NCBI GenBank assembly: GCA_016932785.1
Contig: JAFGCJ010000007.1
Location: 1-62,923 of the forward strand
Reading direction: 5' to 3'
Origin: Candidatus Dojkabacteria bacterium
GTDB lineage: Bacteria; Patescibacteriota; Dojkabacteria; SC72; JAFGCJ01
Length of the DNA: 62,923 nt
This document shows positions 6,468 through 54,944 of this stretch, piece by piece. The stretch's first letter is position 1. Each line of letters starts with the position of its first letter. The notes beneath the pieces are model-generated. The model had not been told where the DNA came from and ran no database searches. It saw only the letters and a program-made list of their open reading frames with translations. The translations under genes and the position numbers were made by a program.

Positions 6468-6592
6468 GGTTCCTCCCAGGGTCTGGTTTAGCTAAAAACT
6501 ATTACTGGTCCCTCGGAAGAGCCTGCTTGTTTGTGATCTTCTCCCAGGGTCTGGTTTAGCTAAAAACTAACACTGGTCCCTCGGAGAAGTTC
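6468..6592 (+). repeat. Tandem duplicated ~55-nt imperfect hairpins (R1 6468-6523, R2 6535-6592)
   Basis: The 45-nt cores at 6473-6517 and 6541-6585 match at 43/45 positions (CTCCCAGGGTCTGGTTTAGCTAAAAACTAxxACTGGTCCCTCGGA). Each folds into a ~20-position stem whose basal pairs differ between copies but still pair. Confidence 0.8.
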
Positions 6593-18137: not shown

Positions 18138-19352
18138 ATGCCAAAACGTAAGGAAAATTTATTAAATGATTTTCTAACCTTTTTCAAGGAATTTTCAAAG
18201 TATCTATACAAGCGAGTTCGACTCGTTTTTGTTTTGTCTACTGTTTTCTATGAAGTTGTCTCTCAGTGGACATCTGGTTTGAAGAGATATTCTCTTAGGT
18301 ATCTTTTTTGGGGAAGAGTTAAAGGATACCGTGCTGTTGTTGCTGCTTTCCTCACTGTTCTAGTTTTTCTTCTACCGTTCATTTTTAGAAGACAACCCAT
18401 TACTCAAGAAACCTATGCTATTGAGCAGGATGCCTATGCTACTTTTGCTCAGAACGATCTATTGATTGAGCAGGGAACATCTCAAACTTTGATACCTAAG
18501 TCACGTCCTCGTATGGATATCATGATATATACAGTTAAAGGTGGAGACACGGTGAGTACTATAGCTGAGGAGTTTGGGCTATCGGTTGATACTATAGTAT
18601 GGGCAAACAATCTCTCCAGTGCTCATGTAATCAAGCCGGGAATGCAATTGAAAATTCTTCCTGGTGATGGGGTTATTCATACGGTGAAAAAAGGAGATTC
18701 TCTTGCAAGTATCGCCAAGAAATATGAAGCTGCGGAGCAGGCAATAGCAGATGTTAACTGGTTAGATCCTCCATTCACGCTTGAGGCTGGTCAGACATTG
18801 TTTATTCCGGATGGAACTATGCCTCCTGACCCGACCCCTGTGGCTTCTACCTCAACCAGTGCTACAGGTGGAAATGTCTCAACTGGTGGCGGAAGTCCGC
18901 CTCCTGCGGCACCTCCTTCTGGAACAAGGTTCCTGAGCTGGCCGGTTGCTGGTGGCCGTGGGTATGTGAGCCAGTGTTATACAGGATGGCATAATGGTAT
19001 AGATATCGCTGATCCAGGATGGCCAAATGTTGTTGCTGGTGCCTCCGGAAAAGTGGTTTTTGCTGGCTGTCAGTCGGGTTCGTGTCCTCCTCCGGGATCA
19101 TCAATTGGAGGTTACGGTTTGGCCTGGACAATAATTATTGATCATGGAAATGGTTATTCAACTATCTATGGTCACTTGAACAAACTTTATGTTTCCAGTG
19201 GACAATATGTCGGTACCGGTTCAGCAATAGGTCAAATGGGAAGAAGCGGAACGGCGACGGGGGTGCATTTGCACTTCATGGTTGTAAGGTCTGGGACCTG
19301 GAGTTCGTTGAATCCTGCGCAGTTTATGCAAAACCATGTGTGCGGGTATTAG
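18138..19352 (+). CDS. LysM-domain M23 family peptidase (cell-wall endopeptidase)
   Basis: A TM anchor, two LysM repeats (YTVKGGDTVSTIAEEFG, HTVKKGDSLASIAKKY), and the M23 motifs HNGIDI and GVHLHF. The start could be the TTG at 18102. Confidence 0.85.
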   Translation: MPKRKENLLNDFLTFFKEFSKYLYKRVRLVFVLSTVFYEVVSQWTSGLKRYSLRYLFWGRVKGYRAVVAAFLTVLVFLLPFIFRRQPITQETYAIEQDAYATFAQNDLLIEQGTSQTLIPKSRPRMDIMIYTVKGGDTVSTIAEEFGLSVDTIVWANNLSSAHVIKPGMQLKILPGDGVIHTVKKGDSLASIAKKYEAAEQAIADVNWLDPPFTLEAGQTLFIPDGTMPPDPTPVASTSTSATGGNVSTGGGSPPPAAPPSGTRFLSWPVAGGRGYVSQCYTGWHNGIDIADPGWPNVVAGASGKVVFAGCQSGSCPPPGSSIGGYGLAWTIIIDHGNGYSTIYGHLNKLYVSSGQYVGTGSAIGQMGRSGTATGVHLHFMVVRSGTWSSLNPAQFMQNHVCGY

Positions 19353-19441
19353 CCCTTGGGACTGGGTTTTCCTTGTGGTACCAGTGTTTTTTGTTTTTTC
19401 ATAGACAAAATTTGAGCCCATATAATCTAGTCCTTGGCACT
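19351..19441. repeat. REP doublet (AGCCCTTGGGACT at 19351, AGTCCTTGGCACT at 19429)
   Basis: Two copies of the 13-nt palindromic family, 78 nt apart, immediately upstream of the RAYT gene. The first copy overlaps the stop codon of the M23 peptidase gene. Confidence 0.75.
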
Positions 19442-19480
19442 TAATCCAATTTTAATCTCGATACCGTAGACTCATAATTG

Positions 19481-19927
19481 ATGAGGAATCTACGTTTTAA
19501 AAAGGGTCACATATACCATATTTACAATAGGGGCAACCGTAAAACTAGAATCTTTTTTCAGGAGAATGATAATCAAAGATTTGTTAGAACTATTTGTAAG
19601 TATTCACAGGAGTTTGATATGAAGATACTGGCATACTGCTTAATGCCAAATCATTATCATATTCTGTTGAAGCAGTGTGGAAATACAACAGTTTCGGTAT
19701 ATATGCAAAGAGTGGGTCTATCCTATACCTTATACATGAATAAAAAATACATGATGGTGGGTCATCTTTTCCAGGGTGCATTTGGTGCTAAGGTTGTTCT
19801 TAGAACAAGAAATCTTAAGAGAGTAGTGGAATATATTAAAGGGAATCCAGTTAAGGAAGGGCTGGTTGAAAGAGATTATGACTATAGATGGTTGTACGTG
19901 GCTAGTGCCAGGGACTTGTCGCTATAG
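19481..19927 (+). CDS. IS200/IS605-family Y1 (HUH) transposase, REP-associated tyrosine transposase (RAYT)-like
   Basis: YHIYNRGN, the HUH motif MPNHYHILL, and a C-terminal EYIKGNPV with the candidate catalytic Tyr. About 148 aa. Flanked by inverted REPs. Confidence 0.85.
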   Translation: MRNLRFKKGHIYHIYNRGNRKTRIFFQENDNQRFVRTICKYSQEFDMKILAYCLMPNHYHILLKQCGNTTVSVYMQRVGLSYTLYMNKKYMMVGHLFQGAFGAKVVLRTRNLKRVVEYIKGNPVKEGLVERDYDYRWLYVASARDLSL

Positions 19928-19994
19928 GATGAAATTTGATGCTAGGGAAGGTGGATTGGAGCTGGTATAATAGTTGTATCCGAGTCCTAAGGAC
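19904..19994. repeat. REP doublet (AGTGCCAGGGACT at 19904, AGTCCTAAGGAC at 19983)
   Basis: The first copy lies in the last codons of the RAYT ORF. It is the reverse complement of the 19429 copy apart from one base. The second copy ends exactly at tRNA-Ala position +1. Confidence 0.75.
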
Positions 19995-20069
19995 GGGCCT
20001 GTAGCTCAGTTTGGCTAGAGCGCCACATTCGCATTGTGGAGGTCGGCGGTTCGACTCCGCCCAGGTCCA
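19995..20069 (+). tRNA. tRNA-Ala (anticodon CGC)
   Basis: Hand-folded cloverleaf with anticodon loop TTCGCAT and the G3:U70 alanine identity pair. CCA is not encoded. Confidence 0.85.
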
Positions 20070-23448: not shown

Positions 23449-26400
23449 ATGAAAACATTTTCAATAAAGAAATTTTTTACTTTTCCAAAAGTATTTCTGT
23501 TCTGTTGTGGCTTAATTGGGGTTTTATCTGTTGTTGCGGTTCTTTATTTTTACTTTAGCGAGCCGTGGTCTGAGCCGTATAGTGTTAGGATTACAAACAT
23601 TACCGATAGATCTGCGACTGTTTCGTGGGTTACTGATGAAAAGACAAAGGGAGTTGTTATTTATGGTGAGAAAGATAATTTTGGTCCTTGGGTTTTTGCT
23701 AAGGTCGGCAAGAAGATAGCATATGATGATAGGGATGTTGCTGAGGCTCGGTTGCAAGCCGCTGATGAAGAGAAGTCAAAAATTGAGGATATTGATAGCT
23801 TCGAGGTTGATTATAGTGAAGTTGATGAAAAGATAGTTGTGGAGGAGTTAGGCAAGTACTATGTTCATCATGTTACTCTAACAAATTTAGATCCGGAGTC
23901 AGCGTATTATTTCAAGATTGGAAATGTGCTTCGTTTTGTCTCACCAGATGTTAGCGAGGATGATGGAGGATTTGGTGGAAATAAAGTTGAAACATTTGAA
24001 GAGTTGGATGAGCTTCCGTTGCCGAATCCGGCATATGGGGTAGTTAAGAAGGAAGTTAAGAACGAAGAATATGAGTTACTTGAGGACTCTTTAGTTTACT
24101 TGACTCCAGTTATTCCAACTGAATATAGAGCAGGTACGATGCTGTCTTCTGTGACCGGAGAAAATGGTAGTTGGTATATAGATCTGTCTGCCTCAAGGGA
24201 CGTAGAGACGGGTGAATTGTTGGATGATTACGAAGAGGATGATGGCCAGCTGATTTCTGTTGAAGCTGGACCTCAAGGTGAAATTAAAGAATTTGGAAAT
24301 CCTGCTTCTTGGGATACACCGGCACAGCCGTTTATAATTTGGATGGATGAATCCGGTAGTTCTGATGAGAGTAGCTCCAATCCAAGAGGCGAAGTAAGGG
24401 GTTTGGTTTCTTTTTTGGGTGATTTTATTACGCCAGTTTTAGCAAGTTGTAAGGATGAATGTATGCCTTCATGTATGAGCGGTGCGTGTGCACAGTGTCC
24501 GGATAATGATAACGATGGTAAACCGGATTGTCCTTGTGATGCATCTAGGAGTTGGGAAAAAGGATGTCCGGCGGGTTGCGAGGCAAAATGTGCATCCCTG
24601 GGTAGTGGTGATGATGGAGGGGATGACGTGGACTGTAAGTGGGAGCTAAAGACAGAGCCTGGTGTAGGGGAGCAGTTTTGTAAGGTAGAAAAGGGTAGTC
24701 AATGCTGCTACGTGTGTTATAGGAATGCTTATCAAAATAATTGTTCAGGGGAATGGAAACGGGACGGTGAATTTAATTGTTATCAGCATGATAGCTCTGG
24801 TGCGTGTGCTGGAGAGGCTCCACCGGGTGAGAATGGTAGTCCTGCTAATTCTGGTCAGGAACCGCCGTCTTCAGGAACAGGTGGTGGTCCAGTTCATGAT
24901 AGAGAGGATGTTCCTAGTGGTTGTGACATTTCTGAGTGGACTAATCAGGATATTTCGGATGGGGAATGTTGTGGTTGGTATAACGAGGCTAGTTGTACGT
25001 GTAGCTGCTCTGGGGGTACGACCAAGAGTGTTGGGTGGGGTCAGAAGTGTGACTGTAGTGGAGTTGGGGGGGAATGTTGTGTTAAGTATGATCGTGTACA
25101 CGGATACAATTGTCCATCGGGGGATTACTTAGAGTTAAAGGTATATACCGTTTCGGAAAAAACCGGCTCTTCTTGTAGCGCTGGTACCGCAAGTAGCGGT
25201 GGGATATGCAATTACACTGGTACCAGCATGGACGCGGTCTACAAGTGTCCTGACGGTAGCTACACCAGGACAAAGTCAGATTGTTGTAATACTGGAGGAT
25301 TAGCCTGCTGTTATAGTGTAAAGGAAACTGGTGATGGTTGGGTAAGATATGAAACTCCTACAGAATGTCCTCGAAGTTGTAATGATTGTCCAGGGGATTA
25401 TATATGGAGTACTGCGCCAACTACTGCTGTGTGCTCTGGACTTAATGTACAGTGTGACGACGGGACCTACGTTAGTAGTTCAAGTTCGTGTCCTGAGGGG
25501 ACAGGAGGCGATGGAAAAAAGAAGTGTGGTGATCCGGGAACTGTGGGACAGATGGGAAGTTATGGAGGGTGTGAACATGCATTTATGGAATGTGTGCAAA
25601 ATGGAACGGAATACGAGTGTCAGAGTGTGAAAATTGAAGTTCCAGATATTCCTCCCAGTGGATGTACTAATCCAGGAATGAGTGGAAGTGATGGCGGATG
25701 TCCCTTTGAGAGTCAGGTATGTGTGGAACGTAGTGATGGGGTACGGACGTGCGAAACGAGGGTTGGTGGAGCTACGGGGGGGATAAGTTTGGTGTGTGGT
25801 ACTATGGAAGGAACGAAAGGTAAAAAAGGTTCAGAGGGCGGATGTTCCGATGATGAAGTATGTGCCAAGGGCGCATTAGGCTGGGGATGTGTTAAAACAG
25901 TATCTCAAGAGGTTCCAGTATTCGTAATTCCTGATTTAGACCTTGAATCTCCGGGAACGTATTTGATTCAAAGAGTAAGAGCAGAAAGTATTATGCTGTC
26001 ACCATTTGAAGGCATATATCTGCTAAATCAGACGGGAAGGTACTGTATGGATTATAAGGATGAGAGATACTGCTTTGATATTGAAGTGCCTGGCAGCACG
26101 TTACTTTATGTAGACGAGAATGAAAACGAACAATATGATGAAGGGGTAGACACCAATATTGCTGATGATGCAGTCGAGATCGAGGTATCCAAGGAGTCTG
26201 TAATTAGAAATTATGCTATCTATGAAGGTTTCAATATTGTATCATTTGATGTTGTTGATATGGATGGAGGGACTATGGCATCTGATGTCATTTCCTATTT
26301 GAACGATGAATATGATGACAACTTTTATTCTATCGCCATGTACGATGGGGGATGGAATATTGTTGGGAACCGAGATGGCGAGGTCTATGGCGGAGAAAAT

Positions 26401-26772
26401 GATTTTCAGATTATTCCTGGGAGGGGATATCTACTTAGAGCCAAAAATGATATTGTGGCAAAATTTATTGGAAAATCTGTAGCCGAACCAGTTCCTGTAT
26501 ATATGCGGGAAGGATGGAACCTTGTAGGTATTGCGGGTTCGGATCAGTCCTATACTGCGACTTCTTGGATAGACTCTATTGATGAGATTGATGGTCTGGA
26601 TGCTGATAATGTTACTCGGTGGGATCTTGAGAAATCGAAATATGAGGGACTCCAGAAGGAGGAGGACGACGATGGTACAATTCAGGTCTACGGCTTCGAT
26701 TTTCCTATTGAGGACAGAATAGGTTATTTTGTAAGAATAGCCTCTGGGTCTGGGACCTGGACTCCGTATTAA
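23449..26772 (+). CDS. Giant membrane-anchored Cys-rich surface protein, paralog B
   Basis: Same architecture as 20152-23340. The N- and C-terminal blocks align colinearly (for example YYVHHVT..LDPE..YFF.IGN, and RYCFDI..PGS..LYVD). The central Cys-rich core is divergent. Confidence 0.85.
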   Translation: MKTFSIKKFFTFPKVFLFCCGLIGVLSVVAVLYFYFSEPWSEPYSVRITNITDRSATVSWVTDEKTKGVVIYGEKDNFGPWVFAKVGKKIAYDDRDVAEARLQAADEEKSKIEDIDSFEVDYSEVDEKIVVEELGKYYVHHVTLTNLDPESAYYFKIGNVLRFVSPDVSEDDGGFGGNKVETFEELDELPLPNPAYGVVKKEVKNEEYELLEDSLVYLTPVIPTEYRAGTMLSSVTGENGSWYIDLSASRDVETGELLDDYEEDDGQLISVEAGPQGEIKEFGNPASWDTPAQPFIIWMDESGSSDESSSNPRGEVRGLVSFLGDFITPVLASCKDECMPSCMSGACAQCPDNDNDGKPDCPCDASRSWEKGCPAGCEAKCASLGSGDDGGDDVDCKWELKTEPGVGEQFCKVEKGSQCCYVCYRNAYQNNCSGEWKRDGEFNCYQHDSSGACAGEAPPGENGSPANSGQEPPSSGTGGGPVHDREDVPSGCDISEWTNQDISDGECCGWYNEASCTCSCSGGTTKSVGWGQKCDCSGVGGECCVKYDRVHGYNCPSGDYLELKVYTVSEKTGSSCSAGTASSGGICNYTGTSMDAVYKCPDGSYTRTKSDCCNTGGLACCYSVKETGDGWVRYETPTECPRSCNDCPGDYIWSTAPTTAVCSGLNVQCDDGTYVSSSSSCPEGTGGDGKKKCGDPGTVGQMGSYGGCEHAFMECVQNGTEYECQSVKIEVPDIPPSGCTNPGMSGSDGGCPFESQVCVERSDGVRTCETRVGGATGGISLVCGTMEGTKGKKGSEGGCSDDEVCAKGALGWGCVKTVSQEVPVFVIPDLDLESPGTYLIQRVRAESIMLSPFEGIYLLNQTGRYCMDYKDERYCFDIEVPGSTLLYVDENENEQYDEGVDTNIADDAVEIEVSKESVIRNYAIYEGFNIVSFDVVDMDGGTMASDVISYLNDEYDDNFYSIAMYDGGWNIVGNRDGEVYGGENDFQIIPGRGYLLRAKNDIVAKFIGKSVAEPVPVYMREGWNLVGIAGSDQSYTATSWIDSIDEIDGLDADNVTRWDLEKSKYEGLQKEEDDDGTIQVYGFDFPIEDRIGYFVRIASGSGTWTPY

Positions 26773-26863
26773 GTCCCAAGTACTCAATTATATAGGTCTT
26801 GTTTTCATCGATATATATAACGTAAAATGCCTTTGGTCTGTGAAAAATCCAGTCCCAAGGACT
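26772..26863. repeat. REP doublet (AGTCCCAAGTACT at 26772, AGTCCCAAGGACT at 26851)
   Basis: The two copies are 79 nt apart. The first begins at the last base of the paralog B stop codon. The second ends 2 nt before tRNA-Ala(GGC). Confidence 0.75.
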
Positions 26864-31648: not shown

Positions 31649-34105
31649 ATGAAGAATTATGATTCTAAGAAGATAGAACCAAAATGGCAAAAAAAATGGA
31701 AATCTCAGGGCTTATATAAAGCTGAGGATTTTGACAAGGATAAAGAAAAATTTTATTGCTTAGTGGAATTTCCGTATCCTTCAGGTGAAGGTCTTCACAT
31801 AGGTCATGCATTCACAATGACCGGTGCCGATGTCTATGCCCGGAAAAAGAGAATGGATGGTTATAATGTCCTATTTCCCATGGGTTATGATGCTTTTGGT
31901 CTTCCTGCGGAAAATTATGCCATTAAGATGGGCATTCATCCAAGTGTTGCCGTTAAGCAGAATACCGAGACTTTCCGTCGTCAGATGGAAGAGCTGGCCT
32001 TTTCTTTTGACTGGGATCGGGAGGTAAATACTACTGATCCAGATTACTATAGATGGACTCAGTGGATTTTTGTGAAATTATTCGAAAAAGGTTTGGCTTA
32101 CAAAGAGGAAAAACCAATCAACTGGTGTCCTTCCTGTAAGATTGGTTTAGCTAATGAAGAGGTTGTGGATGGTAAATGTGAGAGGTGTGGAGCAGAGGCG
32201 ACTAAAAAGAACTTGAGTCAGTGGATTGTGAAGATAACAGATTATGCGGATAGGTTGATTGATGGTTTGGAGCAAACGGATTTTGTAAAGAAGGTAGAGA
32301 TGGCTCAGGTTAACTGGATTGATCGCAAGCAGTGGATAGATATTAACTATCCGATCAAGGGAACAGATCGTGAGATTGTTGTCTCGACAACTCGCCCAGA
32401 TACGAACTTCGGTTCAACTTTTGTCGTTTTGGCTCCGGAGCATCCTTTAGTCAGTGAGATTACGAATCCTGATTCCGATCTACACAAAGAAGTGGATATC
32501 TCTGACGAGACGGTAAAAAAGGTTAAAGACTATGTCGTTGAAACAAAGAAAAAGAGTGAGGTTGAGAGAATGGTTATTGACCGGAAGAAAACGGGAGTTT
32601 TTACCGAACTGTATGCTGTAAATCGGATCGATGGCAGAGAGATGCCAGTCTATGTAACAGATTTTGTATTATCGACGATCGGTACCGGTGCTGTCGTTGG
32701 TGTTCCCGGTCATGATATGAGGGATTTTGAGTTTGCTCAGAAATTTGATCTGCCTGTGATGAGGGTTGTTGTCGGTAGTGATGGAGATACTTCTCCTGTA
32801 ACCAAGAGGGGGCAAGTGCAGGAAGAGGATGGTAAGATGATTAATTCAGGGTTTCTTGATGGTATGGATATCCATAAGGCGACGGAGAAGATGATGGACT
32901 ACATCGAGAAAAAAGGTTGGGGCAAGCGTACAATAAGGTATCACCTTCGGGACTGGATTTTCTCTCGACAGCACTACTGGGGGGAGCCAATTCCTATGGT
33001 TAATTGTGAGAAATGTGGCTGGGTTCCTGTTCCTGAAGATCAGTTGCCTGTTGTCCTGCCTCAAGTTGAGAAATACGAGCCGACTGATACCGGAGAGAGC
33101 CCCTTGGCGGTGATGACTGATTGGGTGAATACCGAATGCCCGAAATGTGGGGGCCCTGCGAAGCGCGAAACAGATACAATGCCAAATTGGGCCGGTAGTG
33201 ATTGGTACTTTTTGCGATATCTGGATAACCAAAATGATAAAGAGTTGGCCGACATGAAGAAAATGGAGTACTGGATGCCAGTGGATGTGTACTTGGGAGG
33301 AGATGAACACAACACATTACACTTGTTGTATTCGAGATTCATATATCAGTTCTTGTGGGATATCGGTGCTGTTCCTAAGTCAATTCCGGAGCCTTATTAT
33401 CGTCGTGTCTCTCACGGTGTGATCTTGGGTCCTGATGGACAAAGGATGAGCAAGAGTCGTGGAAATGTCATAGTACCTGATGATATGGCTAAAGAGTATG
33501 GGGTAGATGTCTTGAGAACGTATATGATGTTCATGGGTCCATTTGAGGGAACTATGGCCTGGAACGATAACGCATTGAAGGGTGTTCAAAGGTTTGTAAA
33601 CAGGTTTAATACATATATCCAAGGAGCAGCAGATAAATCGGATAAAGGCGTTGAGGTAGCTGTTAGTAAGTTAGTAAGGAAGGTATCTGATGATCTGGAT
33701 AGCTTTCAGTACAACACTGCTATAGCGGCTATGATGGAGACCTTGAATGAGATTGAAGGTAAGAAAATTTCTAAGAAAAACGCAAAGGTAATGGTTCAGA
33801 TATTTGCGCCCTTTGCTCCGTATTTGACTGAGGAGTTATGGGAAATATTGGGATGTAAGGGTAGTGTTCATGTGACAAGTTGGCCGAAGGTTGATGAGTC
33901 TGTTCTGGCTGATGAGGAAATTGAAATTCCGATTCAGATAAATGGCAAGGTTAGAGGTACTGTAAAAGTATCTCCAGATGTATCAGAGAAGGCTGTCAGA
34001 GAGGCTGCTATGGCCGTAGAAAACGTTAAAAAACATGTTGAGGGTAAAGACATAAAGAAGTTCATTTATGTTCCTGGAAGGATCGTGACTATAGTCAGTC
34101 CTTAG
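31649..34105 (+). CDS. leuS: Leucine--tRNA ligase
   Basis: HIGH motif (HIGHAF), KMSKS motif (RMSKSRGN), a CP1 editing domain and 818 aa. Confidence 0.95.
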   Translation: MKNYDSKKIEPKWQKKWKSQGLYKAEDFDKDKEKFYCLVEFPYPSGEGLHIGHAFTMTGADVYARKKRMDGYNVLFPMGYDAFGLPAENYAIKMGIHPSVAVKQNTETFRRQMEELAFSFDWDREVNTTDPDYYRWTQWIFVKLFEKGLAYKEEKPINWCPSCKIGLANEEVVDGKCERCGAEATKKNLSQWIVKITDYADRLIDGLEQTDFVKKVEMAQVNWIDRKQWIDINYPIKGTDREIVVSTTRPDTNFGSTFVVLAPEHPLVSEITNPDSDLHKEVDISDETVKKVKDYVVETKKKSEVERMVIDRKKTGVFTELYAVNRIDGREMPVYVTDFVLSTIGTGAVVGVPGHDMRDFEFAQKFDLPVMRVVVGSDGDTSPVTKRGQVQEEDGKMINSGFLDGMDIHKATEKMMDYIEKKGWGKRTIRYHLRDWIFSRQHYWGEPIPMVNCEKCGWVPVPEDQLPVVLPQVEKYEPTDTGESPLAVMTDWVNTECPKCGGPAKRETDTMPNWAGSDWYFLRYLDNQNDKELADMKKMEYWMPVDVYLGGDEHNTLHLLYSRFIYQFLWDIGAVPKSIPEPYYRRVSHGVILGPDGQRMSKSRGNVIVPDDMAKEYGVDVLRTYMMFMGPFEGTMAWNDNALKGVQRFVNRFNTYIQGAADKSDKGVEVAVSKLVRKVSDDLDSFQYNTAIAAMMETLNEIEGKKISKKNAKVMVQIFAPFAPYLTEELWEILGCKGSVHVTSWPKVDESVLADEEIEIPIQINGKVRGTVKVSPDVSEKAVREAAMAVENVKKHVEGKDIKKFIYVPGRIVTIVSP

Positions 34106-34187
34106 GACTGAGTTTAGCCTTTTGTTATAGTGGTTTTACGATTTGCGGGGTCCTTTTTGTGGCCCATAGTGACCAGTCCCAAGGACT
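34097..34187. repeat. REP doublet (AGTCCTTAGGACT at 34097, AGTCCCAAGGACT at 34175)
   Basis: The copies are 78 nt apart. The leuS stop codon TAG lies in the loop of the first copy. The second copy is part of the longer palindrome CCAGTCCCAAGGACTGG. Confidence 0.75.
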
Positions 34188-39668: not shown

Positions 39669-39741
39669 TACTTCCGGTTTAATCATCCTGTGTAGATGTT
39701 TTCTGGGTGTTTTTTGTGTGATAAAATCGCACAGTGAAGGT

Positions 39742-39814
39742 GCACCCGTAGCTCAAAGGATAGAGCAACTGCCTTCTAAGCAGTAGGCTGCAGGTTCGAG
39801 TCCTGCCGGGTGCG
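39742..39814 (+). tRNA. tRNA-Arg (anticodon TCT), copy 1
   Basis: Hand-folded 73-nt cloverleaf with anticodon loop CTTCTAA. Confidence 0.85.
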
Positions 39815-39866
39815 TGTTTGTTTTTTGACCCGTGAGGTTCTGAACAATCAGTAATAAGTGTGGCTA

Positions 39867-39943: not shown

Positions 39944-40035
39944 AGTCCTTAGGACTGGGAAAGTCTTATTTTCAAGGGGTTTTCTTGTTGTGGAGGTTGT
40001 GTTTTTGAGTCCTATAATATTCAGTCCCCGGGGTG
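39944..40035. repeat. REP doublet (AGTCCTTAGGACT at 39944, degenerate AGTCCCCGGGGTG at 40023)
   Basis: The copies are 79 nt apart. The doublet starts 3 nt after tRNA-Arg(GCG). An inner CCTATA element precedes the second copy. Confidence 0.65.
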
Positions 40036-40094
40036 GAAACAGGGTATAATTTGACTTGTTAGCCCGTGGATATGGTACAAATGTGGAGGTTCTG

Positions 40095-40186
40095 AGTACC
40101 AGGGACTAAGTGTTATAGGTTGAAAAAATGGTATACTAGAGACAGAGAAAGACTGAATACTTAGGTCTCGTTGAGTCCTAAGGACT
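40095..40186. repeat. REP doublet (AGTACCAGGGACT at 40095, AGTCCTAAGGACT at 40174)
   Basis: The copies are 79 nt apart. TATAGG follows the first copy. The second copy ends 6 nt before tRNA-Arg(TCG). Confidence 0.7.
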
Positions 40187-40354: not shown

Positions 40355-40855
40355 ATGTTTTCTATTGATCCCCGAAAAGTTCTTCTTGTCGAGTCTGAAC
40401 CTTCAATTCAAGTTGTTGTGAGTAATTATCTGAGGATGTTATATGGCTGTGATGTTGTTACTCAATCGTCCGTTGAGGGTGCTATTTTTTCACTTCAACA
40501 AAACGTAGAGCAGCCGTTTGGTTCGATAGTTGTCTCTGATGAGGTGCAATTAAGAAAAGGTCTTTGGAGTCCTGATGAATGGGAACAAAGACATGGAGTC
40601 GGATTGTTGGAAATGCTCTATAGAAGAGGAGATATTCTGGAGACGAGTCTTCTTCCTAGGGTTGTAATTGGGGCTGGGCATTCTCAATTTGGGTGTGAGG
40701 CTTTTCAGGCGCTTTTTAGTGAAATCGAAGGTTCGTCAGGTAAAAGCGTTGAGAGTGTGACATTTGAAGAGGGATTTATATTTAGTGCAGTTAGCAAAAC
40801 CGAGATAGATGGCGCATTTGAGAAGGCGTTTGCGTCTCTTCCTACTGTGGGATGA
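40355..40855 (+). CDS. Hypothetical protein, possibly a degenerate CheY-like receiver fold
   Basis: The N-terminus KVLLVESEPSIQ resembles a receiver beta1 strand, but Glu replaces the acidic pair. The assignment is weak. Confidence 0.4.
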   Translation: MFSIDPRKVLLVESEPSIQVVVSNYLRMLYGCDVVTQSSVEGAIFSLQQNVEQPFGSIVVSDEVQLRKGLWSPDEWEQRHGVGLLEMLYRRGDILETSLLPRVVIGAGHSQFGCEAFQALFSEIEGSSGKSVESVTFEEGFIFSAVSKTEIDGAFEKAFASLPTVG

Positions 40856-40938
40856 AATAGTTTATCTTATAGTGCTTGAACTAGTATTTTGTTTATGCTA
40901 GTTTAAAATATGTCCTGATAATTTTTAATGCTATTTTC

Positions 40939-43900
40939 ATGAGAAAAATTAAGCTTTCTCGGAATGCGATCATCGTTCTCAGTTTGGTCGGGTTCCTTTT
41001 TGTAGGTGTGACAGCATATATTGTTTCTAGTTCTGATTTTTCTTTTGAATATAGGCGAAGAGCGGGAGAAGAGGATATGGGGATTGTAAGGGAAGCATTA
41101 GTGAATGGTGAGGTTATTGAGGTTGACGTTGGGACAAATCCGCCGAGTAAATTTTTTGGGACATCTGATGTTGATTATACCGATGTCAAATTTATGCTTT
41201 ATCGCGATGGTGAACGGCCTCCTGAGGTTGGGGAGTGTCTTACTGATGGTGAGTCTGGACACTATCCGGATGAGGCTGATGACGATTGGGTTGGCTGCTG
41301 TGAAGGACTGGAATATCTACCTTTTGAGGAGCCGAATGGTGACATATGTAAGAGCGATCCGACAATGTTTACTTGTACATCTACGGTATGTGGTGATGGC
41401 AAGTGTGAGTCTCCTGAGAATAAGTGTAATTGTCCTGATGATTGTATTACTGATTGTCTTCAGGCCGGGGAAAGCTACAATCCATCCTTGGGTCCGAATG
41501 ATCCGAATTTTGGAAAGTCTTGTTGTGAAGGACTGATACCTGTATCTCCGGAGGCTGTATATGATGAAGAATGTAACATGCTGCCTATTGCGGGTGCTCC
41601 TGTTACATGTTCGAACTGTGGAAATGATACGTGTGAGACGTGGGAAAATAAATGTAGCTGTTCTAAGGACTGTGGAGAGGTAGAGATTTGTGATAATGGG
41701 AAAGATGATGACACAGATGGCTATGTAGACTGTAAGGATCCCGATTGTGATGGAATTGTTACTTCAGGAGGAGTTTGTTGCGGTGGTAGTGCCTGTTCTG
41801 GGTCATGTGTTAGCGGATCGTGTTGTGAAACTAAAGTGTGCGGTAATACGTGTTGTGGAAATGCTGATGATGTTTGTGTAAATAACCAGTGTTGTGCCGT
41901 TGGAAAGACCTGTGGTCTTGAGTGTTGCGGTGCAAATCAGGGTTGTACAGGTGTCGGCTGCTTGAATTTCTGTGAAACGGAAGCCGATTGTACTAGTAAT
42001 ACTACTTGTTATGGTACAAGCTCAGGGTTGGGTTACTGTGTTCCAAAATTCTGTGATGAACCTAATGACTGTTATACAGGAAACTGTGTTGATGGTCAGT
42101 GTGATAATAGCGGTAAACCGCTTCCGCCTTTACCATCTCAGGCTCCGGCAGGGACCAGTACTACTGCTAAAAGTGGATCTCTGGTACTTGGAGCAAATGC
42201 CCAGTCTGAATCTGCTGATAATTCAGTCAGTACGGTCGTAAAGAATCTTGAGAATGATTCTGCTCATGCAAGTTTTAACCTTTTCGAAATATATGGATTT
42301 AGCATTAAGTGTGAAGGCGATGCTGATGAAGGTAGTCCCGTTTGTGAATATGTTATGGATGAAGATATGTTCAATCAAGAAGCTGTGAATCATGAGTTTG
42401 CGGTTTGGGCATGTGGTTGTGTTCAAAATGATGCAAATGATCCAAATGAGTGCGAGTGTGTAACGGACTATGTTAAAACTGATGACTACTTTGTCTATAA
42501 GCCGTCAATAAGTTCAAGGATCGACGATTCTACATTCTGTTATTCTTTGACTCAGACTGATGATGGTACTGGATGGGTTTATCCTGGGCCATTGCCGGGT
42601 TCTAATAGATCGTGGATAAAGTATGTAGCTACAGATTCTTTAGAAAATGAGCAAGTAGCATACTATATGGCCTCAATTTCTTTGAGTGATCCTGGGTTCT
42701 TGGGATTTAATTTTAAACCTGGCGAACGGTATCAAATTGATGGATATGTTTGCCATGGAAGGGACGAGAATTGGCCAGATGATGCTGAGGGTCCATACAA
42801 GTGGTGTGAGCAAACACCTATCGATACAATATTTCACACAGCACTCACGGAGGAAAATTGTGATCAACCAACTGTTGATCTGGAAGCGGATGTGACAATG
42901 TTGTCTGAAAATAGTGTTCCTGTCGGGGATATGGTAAAGGTTAGTGCTTCAAGAATTAAGAATTATACGCTGGATCATGTGCCAAGTCTTTTGGAGATTA
43001 ATTTAAGTAAGAATCTTGATTGTGCGTCCTGTGATGCTATTAAATCCTACTCTTATACTCACGATACAAATCCGGATGCGATTCCAATAATATCAGCTAC
43101 GTATACCTTCGAGTATACGGATCTTGAAGCTGGAGTGTATATTATGGAGGCAAGGGTTTTTGCGCTTGAAGACTTGGATTCTAATCTTTCTAACAATGTA
43201 GACTCTGTTGTATTCGAAGTCTATGATGAAGGAGAGTGTGAAGGTGTAACCTGTGGAGAGAAGCAGATTTTGAATACAGATACCTGCGAGTGTGAGGATG
43301 TTGATTGTACCAGTGACGATCACTGTAGTCTGAATCAAATGTGCGACCTGGAGAGTCACAGATGTGTCTGTGATGATAGCTTATGTGATCAGAGCAATTG
43401 TCCTGAAAGGAATCCTGAATGTAAGGAAATGAATAGCGATTGTTCAGCATGTATTTGTAAGAACTCGTGTCTGATGGATCAAGTTCAGGATGCAAGCTCC
43501 TGTGAATGCTATGATGTCTGTAAGATTACCCCCTCAGAATGTATTAGAGAAGGGAAAGTGCTAAACCTGTTAACGTGTGAATGCGAAGCTGTAGAGTGTA
43601 TAGACAATGACGACTGTCAGGGCATGGAGTATTGTCAGAAACCTGAGTACGAGTGTGAATGTCCAAGCTGTGGACCAAGAATGAAGGCGGTTAATAATTG
43701 TTCAGAATGTGTCTGTGATACGACATGTGCTCCGGGTCAAATTGTCAGATCTGACTGTACGTGCTATACGCCACCTCAGCCAACAGGCTGTACCAATGAG
43801 TGTTCTGAAGGGCAAATCCAGCTTTCAGACTGTACATGTTATACACCTTCGTCAACCTATGGGACCGGAGGTCCTGTAAGTGATGAGGACGAAAATGAAT

Positions 43901-44325
43901 ACGAAGACATGAGAGAGGACGTTCTTGACGATAGTGGTGTAAAGCTGGTAATTGAAACTCCGTCGGAAGACGAAACTTACTATGCTGGAAAGAAGATACT
44001 TCTTAGATATAAACTCGAAGGGGACGGAGATGTAGATACCGACCAAGTTGTCTGGTATGTAAACGGTGAAAAGGTTGGTACTGGTAACTTCGTTGCTTAT
44101 ACATTCGAGGAAGCCGACGAATACAAAATAGAAGTTAAGTATAAGGGTGAGTCTCAAGATAAAGCAGAAATAAAAGTTCTTGAGGATGAGGCAAAATCTG
44201 AAACTGCTGAAGAGAGAGAAGAAAGTAAAGAAGGAATAGGTATAGTGTGGTACTTTTTGATTGGTGCTGGAATCCTTATTGTTGTGGGAATAGTAATAGC
44301 AATGCTTAGTAAGGCAGGGAGATAA
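40939..44325 (+). CDS. Giant Cys-rich surface protein with N-terminal signal anchor, PKD/Ig-like module and C-terminal TM anchor
   Basis: Repeated CG(D/N)xxCExxENKCxCxxDC modules, many CxC / CTCYTP modules, and a C-terminal hydrophobic helix IVWYFLIGAGILIVVGIVIAML. Confidence 0.85.
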   Translation: MRKIKLSRNAIIVLSLVGFLFVGVTAYIVSSSDFSFEYRRRAGEEDMGIVREALVNGEVIEVDVGTNPPSKFFGTSDVDYTDVKFMLYRDGERPPEVGECLTDGESGHYPDEADDDWVGCCEGLEYLPFEEPNGDICKSDPTMFTCTSTVCGDGKCESPENKCNCPDDCITDCLQAGESYNPSLGPNDPNFGKSCCEGLIPVSPEAVYDEECNMLPIAGAPVTCSNCGNDTCETWENKCSCSKDCGEVEICDNGKDDDTDGYVDCKDPDCDGIVTSGGVCCGGSACSGSCVSGSCCETKVCGNTCCGNADDVCVNNQCCAVGKTCGLECCGANQGCTGVGCLNFCETEADCTSNTTCYGTSSGLGYCVPKFCDEPNDCYTGNCVDGQCDNSGKPLPPLPSQAPAGTSTTAKSGSLVLGANAQSESADNSVSTVVKNLENDSAHASFNLFEIYGFSIKCEGDADEGSPVCEYVMDEDMFNQEAVNHEFAVWACGCVQNDANDPNECECVTDYVKTDDYFVYKPSISSRIDDSTFCYSLTQTDDGTGWVYPGPLPGSNRSWIKYVATDSLENEQVAYYMASISLSDPGFLGFNFKPGERYQIDGYVCHGRDENWPDDAEGPYKWCEQTPIDTIFHTALTEENCDQPTVDLEADVTMLSENSVPVGDMVKVSASRIKNYTLDHVPSLLEINLSKNLDCASCDAIKSYSYTHDTNPDAIPIISATYTFEYTDLEAGVYIMEARVFALEDLDSNLSNNVDSVVFEVYDEGECEGVTCGEKQILNTDTCECEDVDCTSDDHCSLNQMCDLESHRCVCDDSLCDQSNCPERNPECKEMNSDCSACICKNSCLMDQVQDASSCECYDVCKITPSECIREGKVLNLLTCECEAVECIDNDDCQGMEYCQKPEYECECPSCGPRMKAVNNCSECVCDTTCAPGQIVRSDCTCYTPPQPTGCTNECSEGQIQLSDCTCYTPSSTYGTGGPVSDEDENEYEDMREDVLDDSGVKLVIETPSEDETYYAGKKILLRYKLEGDGDVDTDQVVWYVNGEKVGTGNFVAYTFEEADEYKIEVKYKGESQDKAEIKVLEDEAKSETAEEREESKEGIGIVWYFLIGAGILIVVGIVIAMLSKAGR

Positions 44326-44406: not shown

Positions 44407-44722
44407 ATAGCTCGTGAGAAATATTAGTTTTGTAGTTTTGGCGTAAGCAAGCTGGGGTAGCTGTAAGCCCGGTGCCATAATCAAAATGAACGCGTCTCAC
44501 ACATAGCTGACCGAAGAAAGCCATGTGCAAGTAGGTCATCGAATGCTCCAAGGTTGTTCTTAGAGAAGGCTGCGGATAATTCGTGAGTTTGCAAGCTTGT
44601 ATGGGCTCTTCTTAACGGAAGGGCTTTTTTATAGAAGCTTGAAGACGGGTGGTACCGCGGGAGAATGAAGAAAGCTCTCGTCCTGTTGTCAGTGTATCTG
44701 GCAGTAGGACGGGAGCTTTTTT
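44407..44722 (+). promoter_or_regulatory. T-box riboswitch leader (candidate Arg specifier CGC)
   Basis: T-box core GGGTGGTACCGCG at 44647-44659. Terminator AGCTCTCGTCCT / AGGACGGGAGCT followed by T6. The T-box 3' part CGGGAG duplicates the terminator 3' arm, which is the antiterminator logic. In Stem I, GTGAGA pairs with TCTCAC, with a 3'-side loop GAA-CGC-G at 44488-44494. Confidence 0.7.
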
Positions 44723-44813
44723 AGTCCTTAGGACTGGTATAAGGCTTTAGTTGTAAGGTTTTTGTTAGAAAAAAATATATTTTTTAATCCTATATCCGTT
44801 AGTCCCTGGGACT
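44723..44813. repeat. REP doublet (AGTCCTTAGGACT at 44723, AGTCCCTGGGACT at 44801)
   Basis: It begins directly after the T-box terminator U-tract. It has inner TATAAGG ... CCTATA symmetry. The second copy ends 8 nt before tRNA-Arg. Confidence 0.75.
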
Positions 44814-44821
44814 TAGTTCAA

Positions 44822-44894
44822 GCACCTGTAGCTCAAAGGATAGAGCAACTGCCTTCTAAGCAGTAGGCTGCAGGTTCGAGTCCTGCCAGGTGCG
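44822..44894 (+). tRNA. tRNA-Arg (anticodon TCT), copy 2
   Basis: 73-nt cloverleaf that differs from copy 1 only by a compensated acceptor-stem base pair (positions 6 and 67). Confidence 0.85.
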
Positions 44895-44986
44895 AGTGCC
44901 AAGGACTGGATAATATAGGACTACTTTGAACTAGCATATACGGAGGCTTTGCTCTTTAAAAAAGGTTCGTTTGAGTCCTTGGGACT
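44895..44986. repeat. REP doublet (AGTGCCAAGGACT at 44895, AGTCCTTGGGACT at 44974)
   Basis: It starts at the nucleotide after the tRNA discriminator base. The copies are 79 nt apart, and their central triplets CAA and TTG are in inverted orientation. Confidence 0.75.
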
Positions 44987-54647: not shown

Positions 54648-54738
54648 AGGCCTTGGAACTGGTTTAGGCTTGTGGAAGTGGGATTTTGGTGTTTTCTGGA
54701 GGTTATATTTGAGCCCATATAAGTTAGGGCTTGGGACT
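54648..54738. repeat. Degenerate REP doublet (AGGCCTTGGAACT at 54648, AGGGCTTGGGACT at 54726)
   Basis: Both copies deviate from the consensus at 2-3 positions, but they keep the 78-nt spacing. Confidence 0.4.
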
Positions 54739-54779
54739 TGGAAATATGATAAAATCGGGTGTTTATTATTTGATGAAAT

Positions 54780-54853
54780 GCACCCGTAGCTCAATCGGAT
54801 AGAGCAACGCACTCCTAACGCGTAGGTTGCAGGTTCGATTCCTGCCGGGTGCG
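54780..54853 (+). tRNA. tRNA-Arg (anticodon CCT)
   Basis: Hand-folded 74-nt cloverleaf with anticodon loop CTCCTAA. There is one A:C mismatch at the base of the anticodon stem. Confidence 0.75.
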
Positions 54854-54944
54854 AGTCCCAGGGACTGATTACTATGGGACCTGATTTAGGCATTCTTTTT
54901 ATTAGTAATCTTTTTATATCAGGCCTAAACCAGTCCCAAGGCCT
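54854..54944. repeat. REP doublet (AGTCCCAGGGACT at 54854, AGTCCCAAGGCCT at 54932)
   Basis: It fills the spacer between two tRNA-Arg genes. It starts at the base after the discriminator and ends 4 nt before the next tRNA. Confidence 0.7.

Follow-up and report, generated by a model that had tools for sequence, protein, structure and literature searches.

The question raised by a 62,923-nucleotide stretch of DNA from a Candidatus Dojkabacteria bacterium (contig JAFGCJ010000007.1 of assembly GCA_016932785.1; hereafter the window) is whether a small gene for a Y1/HUH enzyme (open reading frame, ORF, 19481-19927) and the short palindromes that bracket it belong together, as a transposase and its cognate repeats, or whether the palindromes serve the tRNA genes beside which most of them lie. 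A first-pass annotation, made from the sequence alone, had proposed a system of repetitive extragenic palindromes (REPs) with a REP-associated tyrosine transposase (RAYT), in which two inverted REPs form a hairpin element (REPIN). On balance we favour a related reading: a lineage-specific Y1 system, of the RAYT type or of the type of the tyrosine transposases associated with terminal inverted repeats (TIRs; TIRYTs), whose cognate hairpin units differ between lineages along with the enzyme and whose gene-less units have spread between genes.

The enzyme itself is readily recognized. As the first-pass annotation had it, the ORF is a Y1/HUH gene: its translation carries the motifs YHIYNRGN, NHYH and YIKGNP and is matched by the Pfam domain Y1_Tnp (E = 6e-14). 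The HUH residues are H59-Y-H61 and the predicted catalytic tyrosine is Y119, within YIKGNP; the NHYH histidines and the Y119-IKG-NP residues are invariant among 16 homologues. The protein scores 65.8 bits against the NCBIfam equivalog REP_Tyr_transpos (NF047646) and 17.2 bits against transpos_IS200 (NF033573; cut-off 55). Its top sequence match in the PDB is E. coli TnpA-REP (4er8), in which the tyrosine is aligned to the catalytic Y115. The same structure ranks first in a Foldseek search with an AlphaFold model built on the 16 homologues (mean predicted local distance difference test, pLDDT, 93.7), with a TM-score of 0.78 and a root-mean-square deviation (rmsd) of 3.3, compared to TM-scores of 0.53-0.60 for the TnpA proteins of IS608, ISDra2 and IS200. 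Sequence and predicted fold thereby identify an intact TnpA-Y1 of class 2 (the REP/TIR-associated type) that is nearer to TnpA-REP than to IS200 or IS608, and the earlier description as RAYT-like, rather than as an IS200 copy, holds in this sense. The window contains one copy of the gene and no tnpB.

The palindromes are strongly over-represented in the window. The sequence AGTCCNNNGGACT (palindrome AGTCCnnnGGACT) has nine exact occurrences where 0.04 are expected, and 23 matches are found with at most two mismatches to AGTCCYWRGGACT, where 3.7 are expected; neither number was reached in any of 100 shuffles. Nineteen of the 23 matches, together with a degenerate copy at 40023, make up ten doublets that lie between genes or overlap gene ends, whereas the other four fall inside ORFs, a number at chance level. 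The first-pass annotation had counted at least 18 copies at intergenic positions or gene ends, nearly all in doublets spaced by 78-79 nt; this count and this spacing were borne out. The same applies to its description of the Y1 flanks. The copies next to the gene, AGTCCTTGGCACT (19429) and AGTGCCAGGGACT (19904), are reverse complements of each other except for one base, which lies in the loop, and their partners are found at 19351 and 19983, at distances of 78 and 79 nt, respectively.

When aligned in one orientation, the ten doublets turn out to be polar units of 91-92 nt with a common plan: an outer palindrome (REP1), usually followed by GG, a filler of about 47 nt, a box CCYATA (TATRGG in reverse), six nucleotides (N6) and an inner palindrome (REP2). 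The palindromes are 13 nt long (a 5-bp stem and a 3-nt loop). Every unit has one box, invariant and exactly 6 nt from REP2. The filler is T-rich and little conserved: the pairwise identity of the interiors is 0.35-0.37, against 0.30 expected by composition, and there are no near-identical copies among the ten. Five units have the orientation described (A units) and five read REP2'-N6-TATRGG...REP1' (B units). From start to start, the palindromes of an A unit lie 78 nt apart, except in the degenerate unit 39944 (79 nt), and those of a B unit lie 79 nt apart, except in unit 54854 (78 nt). No GTAG tetranucleotide is found beside any of the 20 palindromes; the conserved neighbour is the box at N6. 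In the whole window TATRGG occurs 44 times on the + strand and 19 times on the - strand, a skew that may be a coding bias because most genes lie on the + strand.

The polarity of the units changes how the doublets should be read. The centre of the loop is a T in 18 of the 20 palindromes, all read in the A orientation, so that both palindromes of a unit point the same way, as direct repeats. When single doublets are folded as single-stranded DNA (ssDNA) the z-scores range from +1.4 to -2.3, and only three of the ten beat about 95% of their shuffles; a long hairpin was consequently rejected for the doublet, since folding was no better than in shuffles for seven of the ten. Being composed of direct repeats that do not form a long hairpin, the 91-nt doublet is therefore not a REPIN, contrary to the earlier proposal of two inverted REPs that fold back on each other. 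The mirror symmetry that had been described within doublets is not there either, each doublet having a single box at 6 nt from one of its palindromes; the symmetry appeared because A units were compared with B units, REP-N6-TATRGG and CCYATA-N6-REP being one unit in two orientations.

What does resemble a REPIN is a pair of inverted units. The window has four such pairs, always with an A unit on the left and a B unit on the right, and with REP2 and the box facing inward (Table 1). They enclose the Y1 gene (19351...19995), a spacer of 59 nt (39944-40186), a tRNA-Arg(TCT) gene (44723-44986) and a tRNA-Arg(CCT) gene (54648-54944). The gene-less pair, 39944-40186, folds into a long, interrupted ssDNA hairpin of -28.9 kcal/mol (shuffles: -19.0 +/- 3.0 kcal/mol; z = -3.3), and no remnant of a Y1 gene was detected in its 59-nt spacer (p = 0.8). 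The last codons of the Y1 ORF are encoded by REP2' and its stop codon lies within the TATAGG box, while at the other end a sigma-70-like TTCATA-17-TATAAT overlaps the box of unit 19351 and is directed toward the gene.

Table 1. Repeat units and associated genes in the window (A, orientation REP1 to REP2; B, the reverse)
Feature	Coordinates	Strand	Remarks
A unit, left bracket of Y1 gene	19351..19441	+	REP1 (19351-19363) overlaps the TAG stop of an M23/LysM peptidase gene; box CCCATA at 19417-19422; REP2 (19429-19441) lies 36-39 nt before the start codon
Y1/HUH enzyme gene	19481..19927	+	148 aa from ATG 19481; 149 aa from TTG 19478
B unit, right bracket of Y1 gene	19904..19995	-	REP2' (19904-19916) within the ORF end; box TATAGG at 19923-19928; REP1' at 19983-19995, its last base being base 1 of tRNA-Ala(CGC)
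Lone B unit	26772..26863	-	First base is the last stop-codon base of ORF 23449-26772; ends 2 nt before tRNA-Ala(GGC)
Lone A unit	34097..34187	+	Between the genes for leucyl-tRNA synthetase (LeuRS) and a peptidyl-prolyl isomerase (PPIase), names from syntenic loci; TAG stop of the LeuRS gene in the REP1 loop
A unit, left half of gene-less pair	39944..40035	+	Begins 2 nt after tRNA-Arg(GCG); second palindrome (40023) degenerate
B unit, right half of gene-less pair	40095..40186	-	Ends 6 nt before tRNA-Arg(TCG)
A unit	44723..44813	+	Directly after the T-run of a T-box-like terminator; ends 8 nt before tRNA-Arg(TCT) copy 2
tRNA-Arg(TCT) copy 2	44822..44894	+	Bracketed by an A and a B unit
B unit	44895..44986	-	First base immediately follows the discriminator of tRNA-Arg(TCT) copy 2
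A unit	54648..54738	+	Lies 40 nt before tRNA-Arg(CCT); its variant AGGCC recurs in the outer palindrome of unit 54854 (26 nt, 92% complementary)
B unit	54854..54944	-	Fills the tRNA-Arg(CCT)/tRNA-Arg(CCG) spacer; 1-nt overlap with the call of the first tRNA, 4 nt left before the second

Several other meanings of the units were considered and set aside. At the gathering threshold, Rfam calls in the window are tRNAs and rRNAs alone, and nothing credible was obtained within the units at E <= 5; the units as a known RNA or as degenerate tRNAs were rejected on this ground. A sigma-70 promoter or an intrinsic terminator was rejected as the general meaning, as the promoter-like match occurs at the Y1-proximal unit alone and terminators showed no systematic match. 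A sigma-54 reading of TGGCAC, which is found in three palindromes, was dropped because no -12 element follows. A metagenome scan with the pattern AGTCCNNNGGACT-N63-67-AGTCCNNNGGACT gave 119 stretches; the box is present in none of the 97 doublets of the 80 loci returned, and these doublets are unrelated tandem or hairpin repeats. Among the metagenome contigs, one of low GC content (L098 5580-5923, and L109) contains AGTCCnnnGGACT 20 times in 13.9 kb, within the longer repeat GATTTAGTCCKWAGGACTTTGAAA, in a layout unrelated to that of the window units.

The design, though not the sequence, of the bracket recurs around related Y1 genes. Of 81 homologous loci in public genomes, 51 have an exact inverted seed of 11 nt or more between the two 350-nt flanks of the gene, where the chance estimate is about 0.04 per locus. 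The homologues in bacteria of the Candidate Phyla Radiation (CPR), e.g. Saccharibacteria, Nomurabacteria and Paceibacteria, have inverted hairpins of 20-30 nt, located 11-50 nt before the start codon and over the stop codon, a geometry as in the window. The two closest homologues (L204 and L002; 49-52% identity) have the doublet design with another motif: in L204 two copies of AAGACCGAGACTC lie 67 nt apart upstream and two inverted copies, again 67 nt apart, lie downstream, the inner one within the end of the ORF; in L002 two copies of GAGACCGAGTCTC are found 79 nt apart, upstream only. Since the L204 motif is non-palindromic, the copies of its doublets can directly be seen to be direct repeats, in line with the orientation deduced from the loops in the window. 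A further homologue, P0021 from another Dojkabacteria metagenome-assembled genome, is seemingly flanked by an inverted repeat of about CTGGCCTAGRTCC (L205 9890-9915 and 10500-10520; read by eye). Its neighbours are unchanged in both contigs examined, and the gene is listed in 44 collection blocks.

Units without the gene were compared with the corresponding positions in other Dojkabacteria, of which the nearest available genomes are distant (arginyl-tRNA synthetase, ArgRS, 54-70% identical). The names carried by the ArgRS homologues place the organism in the Dojkabacteria. Two relatives with syntenic loci (L211 and L212) have kept the window gene order and the tRNA-Arg clusters, whereas AGTCCnnnGGACT is absent. 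In L212 the GCG-TCG spacer measures 49 nt against 251 nt in the window, and the CCT-CCG spacer 66 nt against 94 nt. The T-box terminator of L212 is directly followed by argS, whereas in the window an A unit, tRNA-Arg(TCT) copy 2, a B unit and about 300 nt intervene. With the motif missing and the spacers shorter, the palindrome is not a universally conserved operator, an alternative that the first-pass annotation had named as a refutation, and the behaviour of the units is that of insertions.

Two other relatives do have units of this geometry, with other palindromes. In L209 (ArgRS 70% identical) the T-box terminator is followed by GAGACTCAGTCTT-N6-TATGGG...GAGACTCAGTCTA, with a spacing of 78 nt and an end 8 nt before tRNA-Arg(TCT), and a degenerate copy of the unit lies 6 nt before tRNA-Arg(TCG). 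In L214 (54%) four units are located upstream of tRNA-Arg(GCG), tRNA-Arg(TCG), tRNA-Pro and tRNA-Arg(CCG), each consisting of a degenerate palindrome, N6, TATAGG, about 55 nt and, some 1-7 nt ahead of the tRNA, GAGTTCGGAACTC in intact or degenerate form. The stems AGTCC, GAGAC and GAGTT are natural specificity variants among these relatives. The interior of window unit 44723 has no significant likeness to that of the L209 unit at the matching place (p = 0.09) and the two have opposite orientations, so that independent placement is no less likely than descent in place, and vertical descent of this unit is unsupported. In the 13-mers of the window, L209, L214, L002 and L204 taken together, the five stem pairs have been maintained by double changes: 82% of the cells are paired, against 62% when shuffled, and 35 cells changed on both sides, against 16.6; none of 500 shuffles reaches either value, although the statistic carries some ascertainment bias because the motifs were picked as repeats.

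The units are also associated with tRNA genes: of the ten in the window, nine occupy spacers next to a tRNA gene. If intergenic stretches of at least 60 nt are considered, units are found in 7 of the 12 that touch a tRNA gene and in 1 of the 23 others (Fisher p = 0.0008). Upstream of tRNAs, the distance from the end of the unit to the tRNA 5' end is -1 (an overlap by one base) to 6 nt for four B units and 8 nt for one A unit; downstream, three units begin at -1 to 2 nt from the tRNA 3' end. For the window, L209 and L214 combined, TATRGG is located 72-80 nt upstream of the +1 position at 9 of 34 tRNAs (P ~7e-13 with the empirical box frequency). In the window, tRNA-Arg(TCT) is present twice (39741-39815 and 44822-44894), as a repeat of 76 nt with 96% identity that extends 3 nt beyond the tRNA end; the further flanks are unlike by eye. 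A C/T difference at position 6 is matched by G/A on the 3' acceptor strand, and the stem is paired in both copies. The relatives have one copy each, in the examined stretches of L211, L212 and L214 and, in L209, between tRNA-Arg(TCG) and argS. Capture or transport of the second copy by the unit pair around it is possible.

How such a system would work can be sketched by analogy with the TnpA proteins of IS608 and ISDra2 and with E. coli TnpA-REP. The Y1 enzyme would bind the short hairpins on single-stranded DNA and read the box, at its fixed distance of 6 nt, as a counterpart of the GTAG tag or as the cleavage site. Cutting and rejoining through Tyr119 might then seed or renew units, or whole inverted pairs together with the DNA that they enclose. 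That the spacing stays at 78-79 nt while the interior is near-random suggests joint use of both hairpins in a unit, and selection on the geometry that acts at the level of either the element or the host. A preference for highly transcribed tRNA genes may reflect the single-stranded DNA exposed there or, alternatively, a service of the units to the host.

Of the known systems, the TIRYTs come close. According to Quentin et al. 2018 (PMC6006769), subclass 2.1 of the Y1 enzymes equals group 1 of Bertels and the TIRYTs of Di Nocera et al. 2013 (PMC3733652), i.e. Y1 genes that have terminal inverted repeats instead of GTAG-REPs and that in some species are accompanied by moderately abundant repeat families. 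The window gene, of which the 63 kb contain one copy, shares with these low-copy "TIRtrons" (PMC3733652) a class-2 enzyme and flanking inverted repeats that can extend over the gene's 3' end; moderately abundant repeats in dimers or clusters have likewise been reported for some TIRYTs. Its motifs NHYH, FQ and Y---NP match those tabulated for subclass 2.1 (NH[YF]H, FQ, Y---NP; PMC6006769), and an assignment to this subclass, rather than to the classical GTAG-REP RAYTs, would fit as far as motifs alone can tell. However, subclass 2.1 is further characterized by TIRs that are often GGGGWSAS and by a C-terminal helix-turn-helix (HTH) domain (PMC6006769), whereas the window enzyme is a short form of 149 amino acids without a C-terminal HTH/DnaA_C-like domain, its flanks are made of two 13-nt mini-hairpins at a spacing of 78-79 nt, together with a CCYATA box, the copies hug tRNA genes and the host is a CPR bacterium.

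With the REP/RAYT systems and their REPINs (E. coli TnpA-REP with REP/BIME, PMC3479197; Pseudomonas fluorescens, PMC3116915; BIME, bacterial interspersed mosaic element) the window shares a Y1 gene, present once in its 63 kb, that is flanked by inverted copies of a short palindrome over-represented between the genes of the window, inverted copies that form a long ssDNA hairpin (39944-40186) and a repeat sequence that varies with the enzyme lineage. It differs from them by hairpins of just 13 nt that lack the GTAG tag, by a doublet that is a direct pair and does not fold on itself, by unconserved interiors with no population of near-identical copies, and by a protein that stays below the NCBIfam RAYT cut-off. 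BIMEs in E. coli combine REPs, in mosaic fashion, with fixed internal motifs for the binding of IHF or gyrase, and they have host-level roles. They resemble the window units in being composite, intergenic and built of two palindromes with a conserved internal motif, but their REPs are inverted and close together, whereas in the window the two palindromes have direct orientation, lie at a distance of 78-79 nt and are linked to tRNA genes. The kind of system is thus a known one, because flanked Y1 genes are widespread, many CPR lineages included, and TIRtrons with repeat families have been described. In the literature we found no description of the two-hairpin unit with its spacing and N6 box, of the flush placement at tRNA genes or of the same design with lineage-specific palindromes in relatives, and no account of REP/RAYT-type systems in CPR bacteria.

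Some observations weigh against the Y1 system that we favour. The palindromes lack the GTAG tag of classical REPs, and the 65.8 bits of the enzyme are below the curated equivalog cut-off of 80. No two units have similar interiors, and recent copying is therefore without support. Among the sequencing runs a single metagenome contains the region, in contigs that break at the tRNAs, and no joints from this organism were seen; the metatranscriptome of the same study gave no signal. The doublets that flank the Y1 genes of L002 and L204 are without the TATRGG box, which therefore may not be an enzyme tag and may belong to a function on the tRNA side. Finally, dyad symmetry would equally be kept by a dimeric protein that binds double-stranded DNA, and the position of same-box units at -72 to -80 from the tRNA +1 in three lineages, including L214 with its different palindromes, fits a host function as well as targeted insertion.

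That last point leads to the rival to be taken most seriously, namely that the units are host cis-elements of the tRNA genes (a promoter or leader, a processing or terminator module, or a site for gyrase or a nucleoid protein) and the Y1 gene a passenger or a domesticated maintainer. The register with tRNA starts, the B units that end flush before a tRNA, the excess in tRNA-adjacent spacers, the conservation of spacing and box while the interiors are free, and the like units upstream of tRNA-Arg(TCG) and tRNA-Arg(CCG) in L214 and of tRNA-Arg(TCT) in L209 all agree with such a role. We nevertheless regard it as unlikely, though by no means negligible: L211 and L212 do without units at the same tRNA genes, so that the units are not required, half of the units are oriented away from every gene on which they might act, and one of the lone units has no tRNA next to it. 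TATRGG moreover has a G where the sigma-70 -10 element needs a T, and no systematic match to promoters or terminators emerged. Finally, the bracket of the Y1 gene consists of these very units, inverted in the way that is typical of the whole Y1 family.

The bracket also bears on the remaining two alternatives. If the palindromes were operators of a dimeric double-strand DNA-binding protein unrelated to Y1, and their proximity to the gene a coincidence, the perfect or near-perfect dyads of the 13-mers would be accounted for, and the symmetry kept by double changes fits a dimer as well as a hairpin. Yet the inner palindromes occupy, just ahead of the start codon and across the stop codon, the places of the flanking hairpins of dozens of Y1 homologues; the closest homologues have the same doublet bracket with another sequence, and the motif is absent from the syntenic relatives, all of which makes an operator improbable. 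An ordinary autonomous insertion sequence of the IS200/IS605 type with miniature derivatives, comparable to palindrome-associated transposable elements (PATEs) or miniature inverted-repeat transposable elements (MITEs), is more improbable still. The Y1_Tnp domain and HUH fold, the short subterminal hairpins and the gene-less derivatives are features of that family, and in IS608, ISDra2 and their miniature derivatives a subterminal hairpin with a short site at a fixed distance from its foot provides a model for the palindrome-N6-box arrangement. The tyrosine motif, however, is Y---NP (class 2) and not the class-1 Y----Q (PMC6006769), the IS200 model score and the fold point the same way, the end hairpins are inverted rather than direct, and 63 kb contain one copy, no tnpB and no near-identical derivatives.

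Within the Y1 system that we prefer, a purely selfish spread of the units is not what the data bring to mind. Dissimilar interiors, an invariant spacing and box, and a register with tRNA starts that recurs in three lineages are compatible with units that are under selection, either as sites recognized by the enzyme or through some service to the host at tRNA genes. The same-geometry units with other palindromes at matching tRNA positions leave room for a host-level role. Tentatively, one might go further and imagine a long-lived, tRNA-tied partnership between the Y1 enzyme and units of fixed geometry, set or retained in register with the first tRNA base, in several Dojkabacteria lineages, in which the hairpins change in concert within each genome along with Y1, the unit is either an HUH element that targets tRNA starts or a domesticated tRNA module, and inverted pairs could move a tRNA gene such as tRNA-Arg(TCT) copy 2; we hold this to be possible, though rather doubtful. 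How REP-type repeats spread, and what benefit single-copy Y1 enzymes bring to the cell, is unsettled even in E. coli and Pseudomonas. The system described here is very small (an enzyme of 149 amino acids, 13-nt hairpins, a box at 6 nt and a second hairpin at 78-79 nt) and should therefore have sharp substrate rules and be easy to test in vitro. Its tRNA register points to a new target choice of HUH enzymes or to a host role for repeats in genomes with very little spare DNA.

The surroundings of the argS gene gave some additional observations. A T-box-like leader with the core GGGTGGTACCGCG, a long terminator hairpin and a T-run is present in the window (44600-44722), in L212 (9860-9935), where it lies upstream of argS, and in L209 (730-880); the Rfam scan of the window at the gathering threshold made no T-box call. 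In the window and in L209 the leader is followed by repeat units and tRNA-Arg(TCT), and then by argS. Directly after tRNA-Arg(TCT), L209 has a stretch (1063-1140) that ends in a sequence resembling a T-arm and acceptor, GGGTTTCGAATCCGACCGGGTGCA; the stretch is not called by ARAGORN, overlaps the start of a called gene and may be a decayed or unusual tRNA. The tRNA-Arg genes TCT, GCG and CCT of L214 (9533-9971, 22218-22294) encode the 3' CCA, whereas the window tRNAs seen do not, the unit beginning right after the discriminator. Between the tRNA-Arg cluster and the argS leader the window contains two ORFs (40355-44325; 166 amino acids, and a Cys-rich one of 1128 amino acids), whereas in L211, L212 and L214 the cluster directly precedes argS or its leader. 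The ArgRS of the window (45283-47895; 870 amino acids) carries a B3_4 domain (PF03483) that is fused N-terminally to the usual ArgRS domains, an arrangement common to the Dojkabacteria relatives, some of which have tRNA_bind in addition. Finally, an intergenic region of 576 nt contains two direct repeats of 45 nt (6473-6517 and 6541-6585; 96% identical, 68 nt apart; CTCCCAGGGTCTGGTTTAGCTAAAAACTAWYACTGGTCCCTCGGA) that are unrelated to the AGTCC family.

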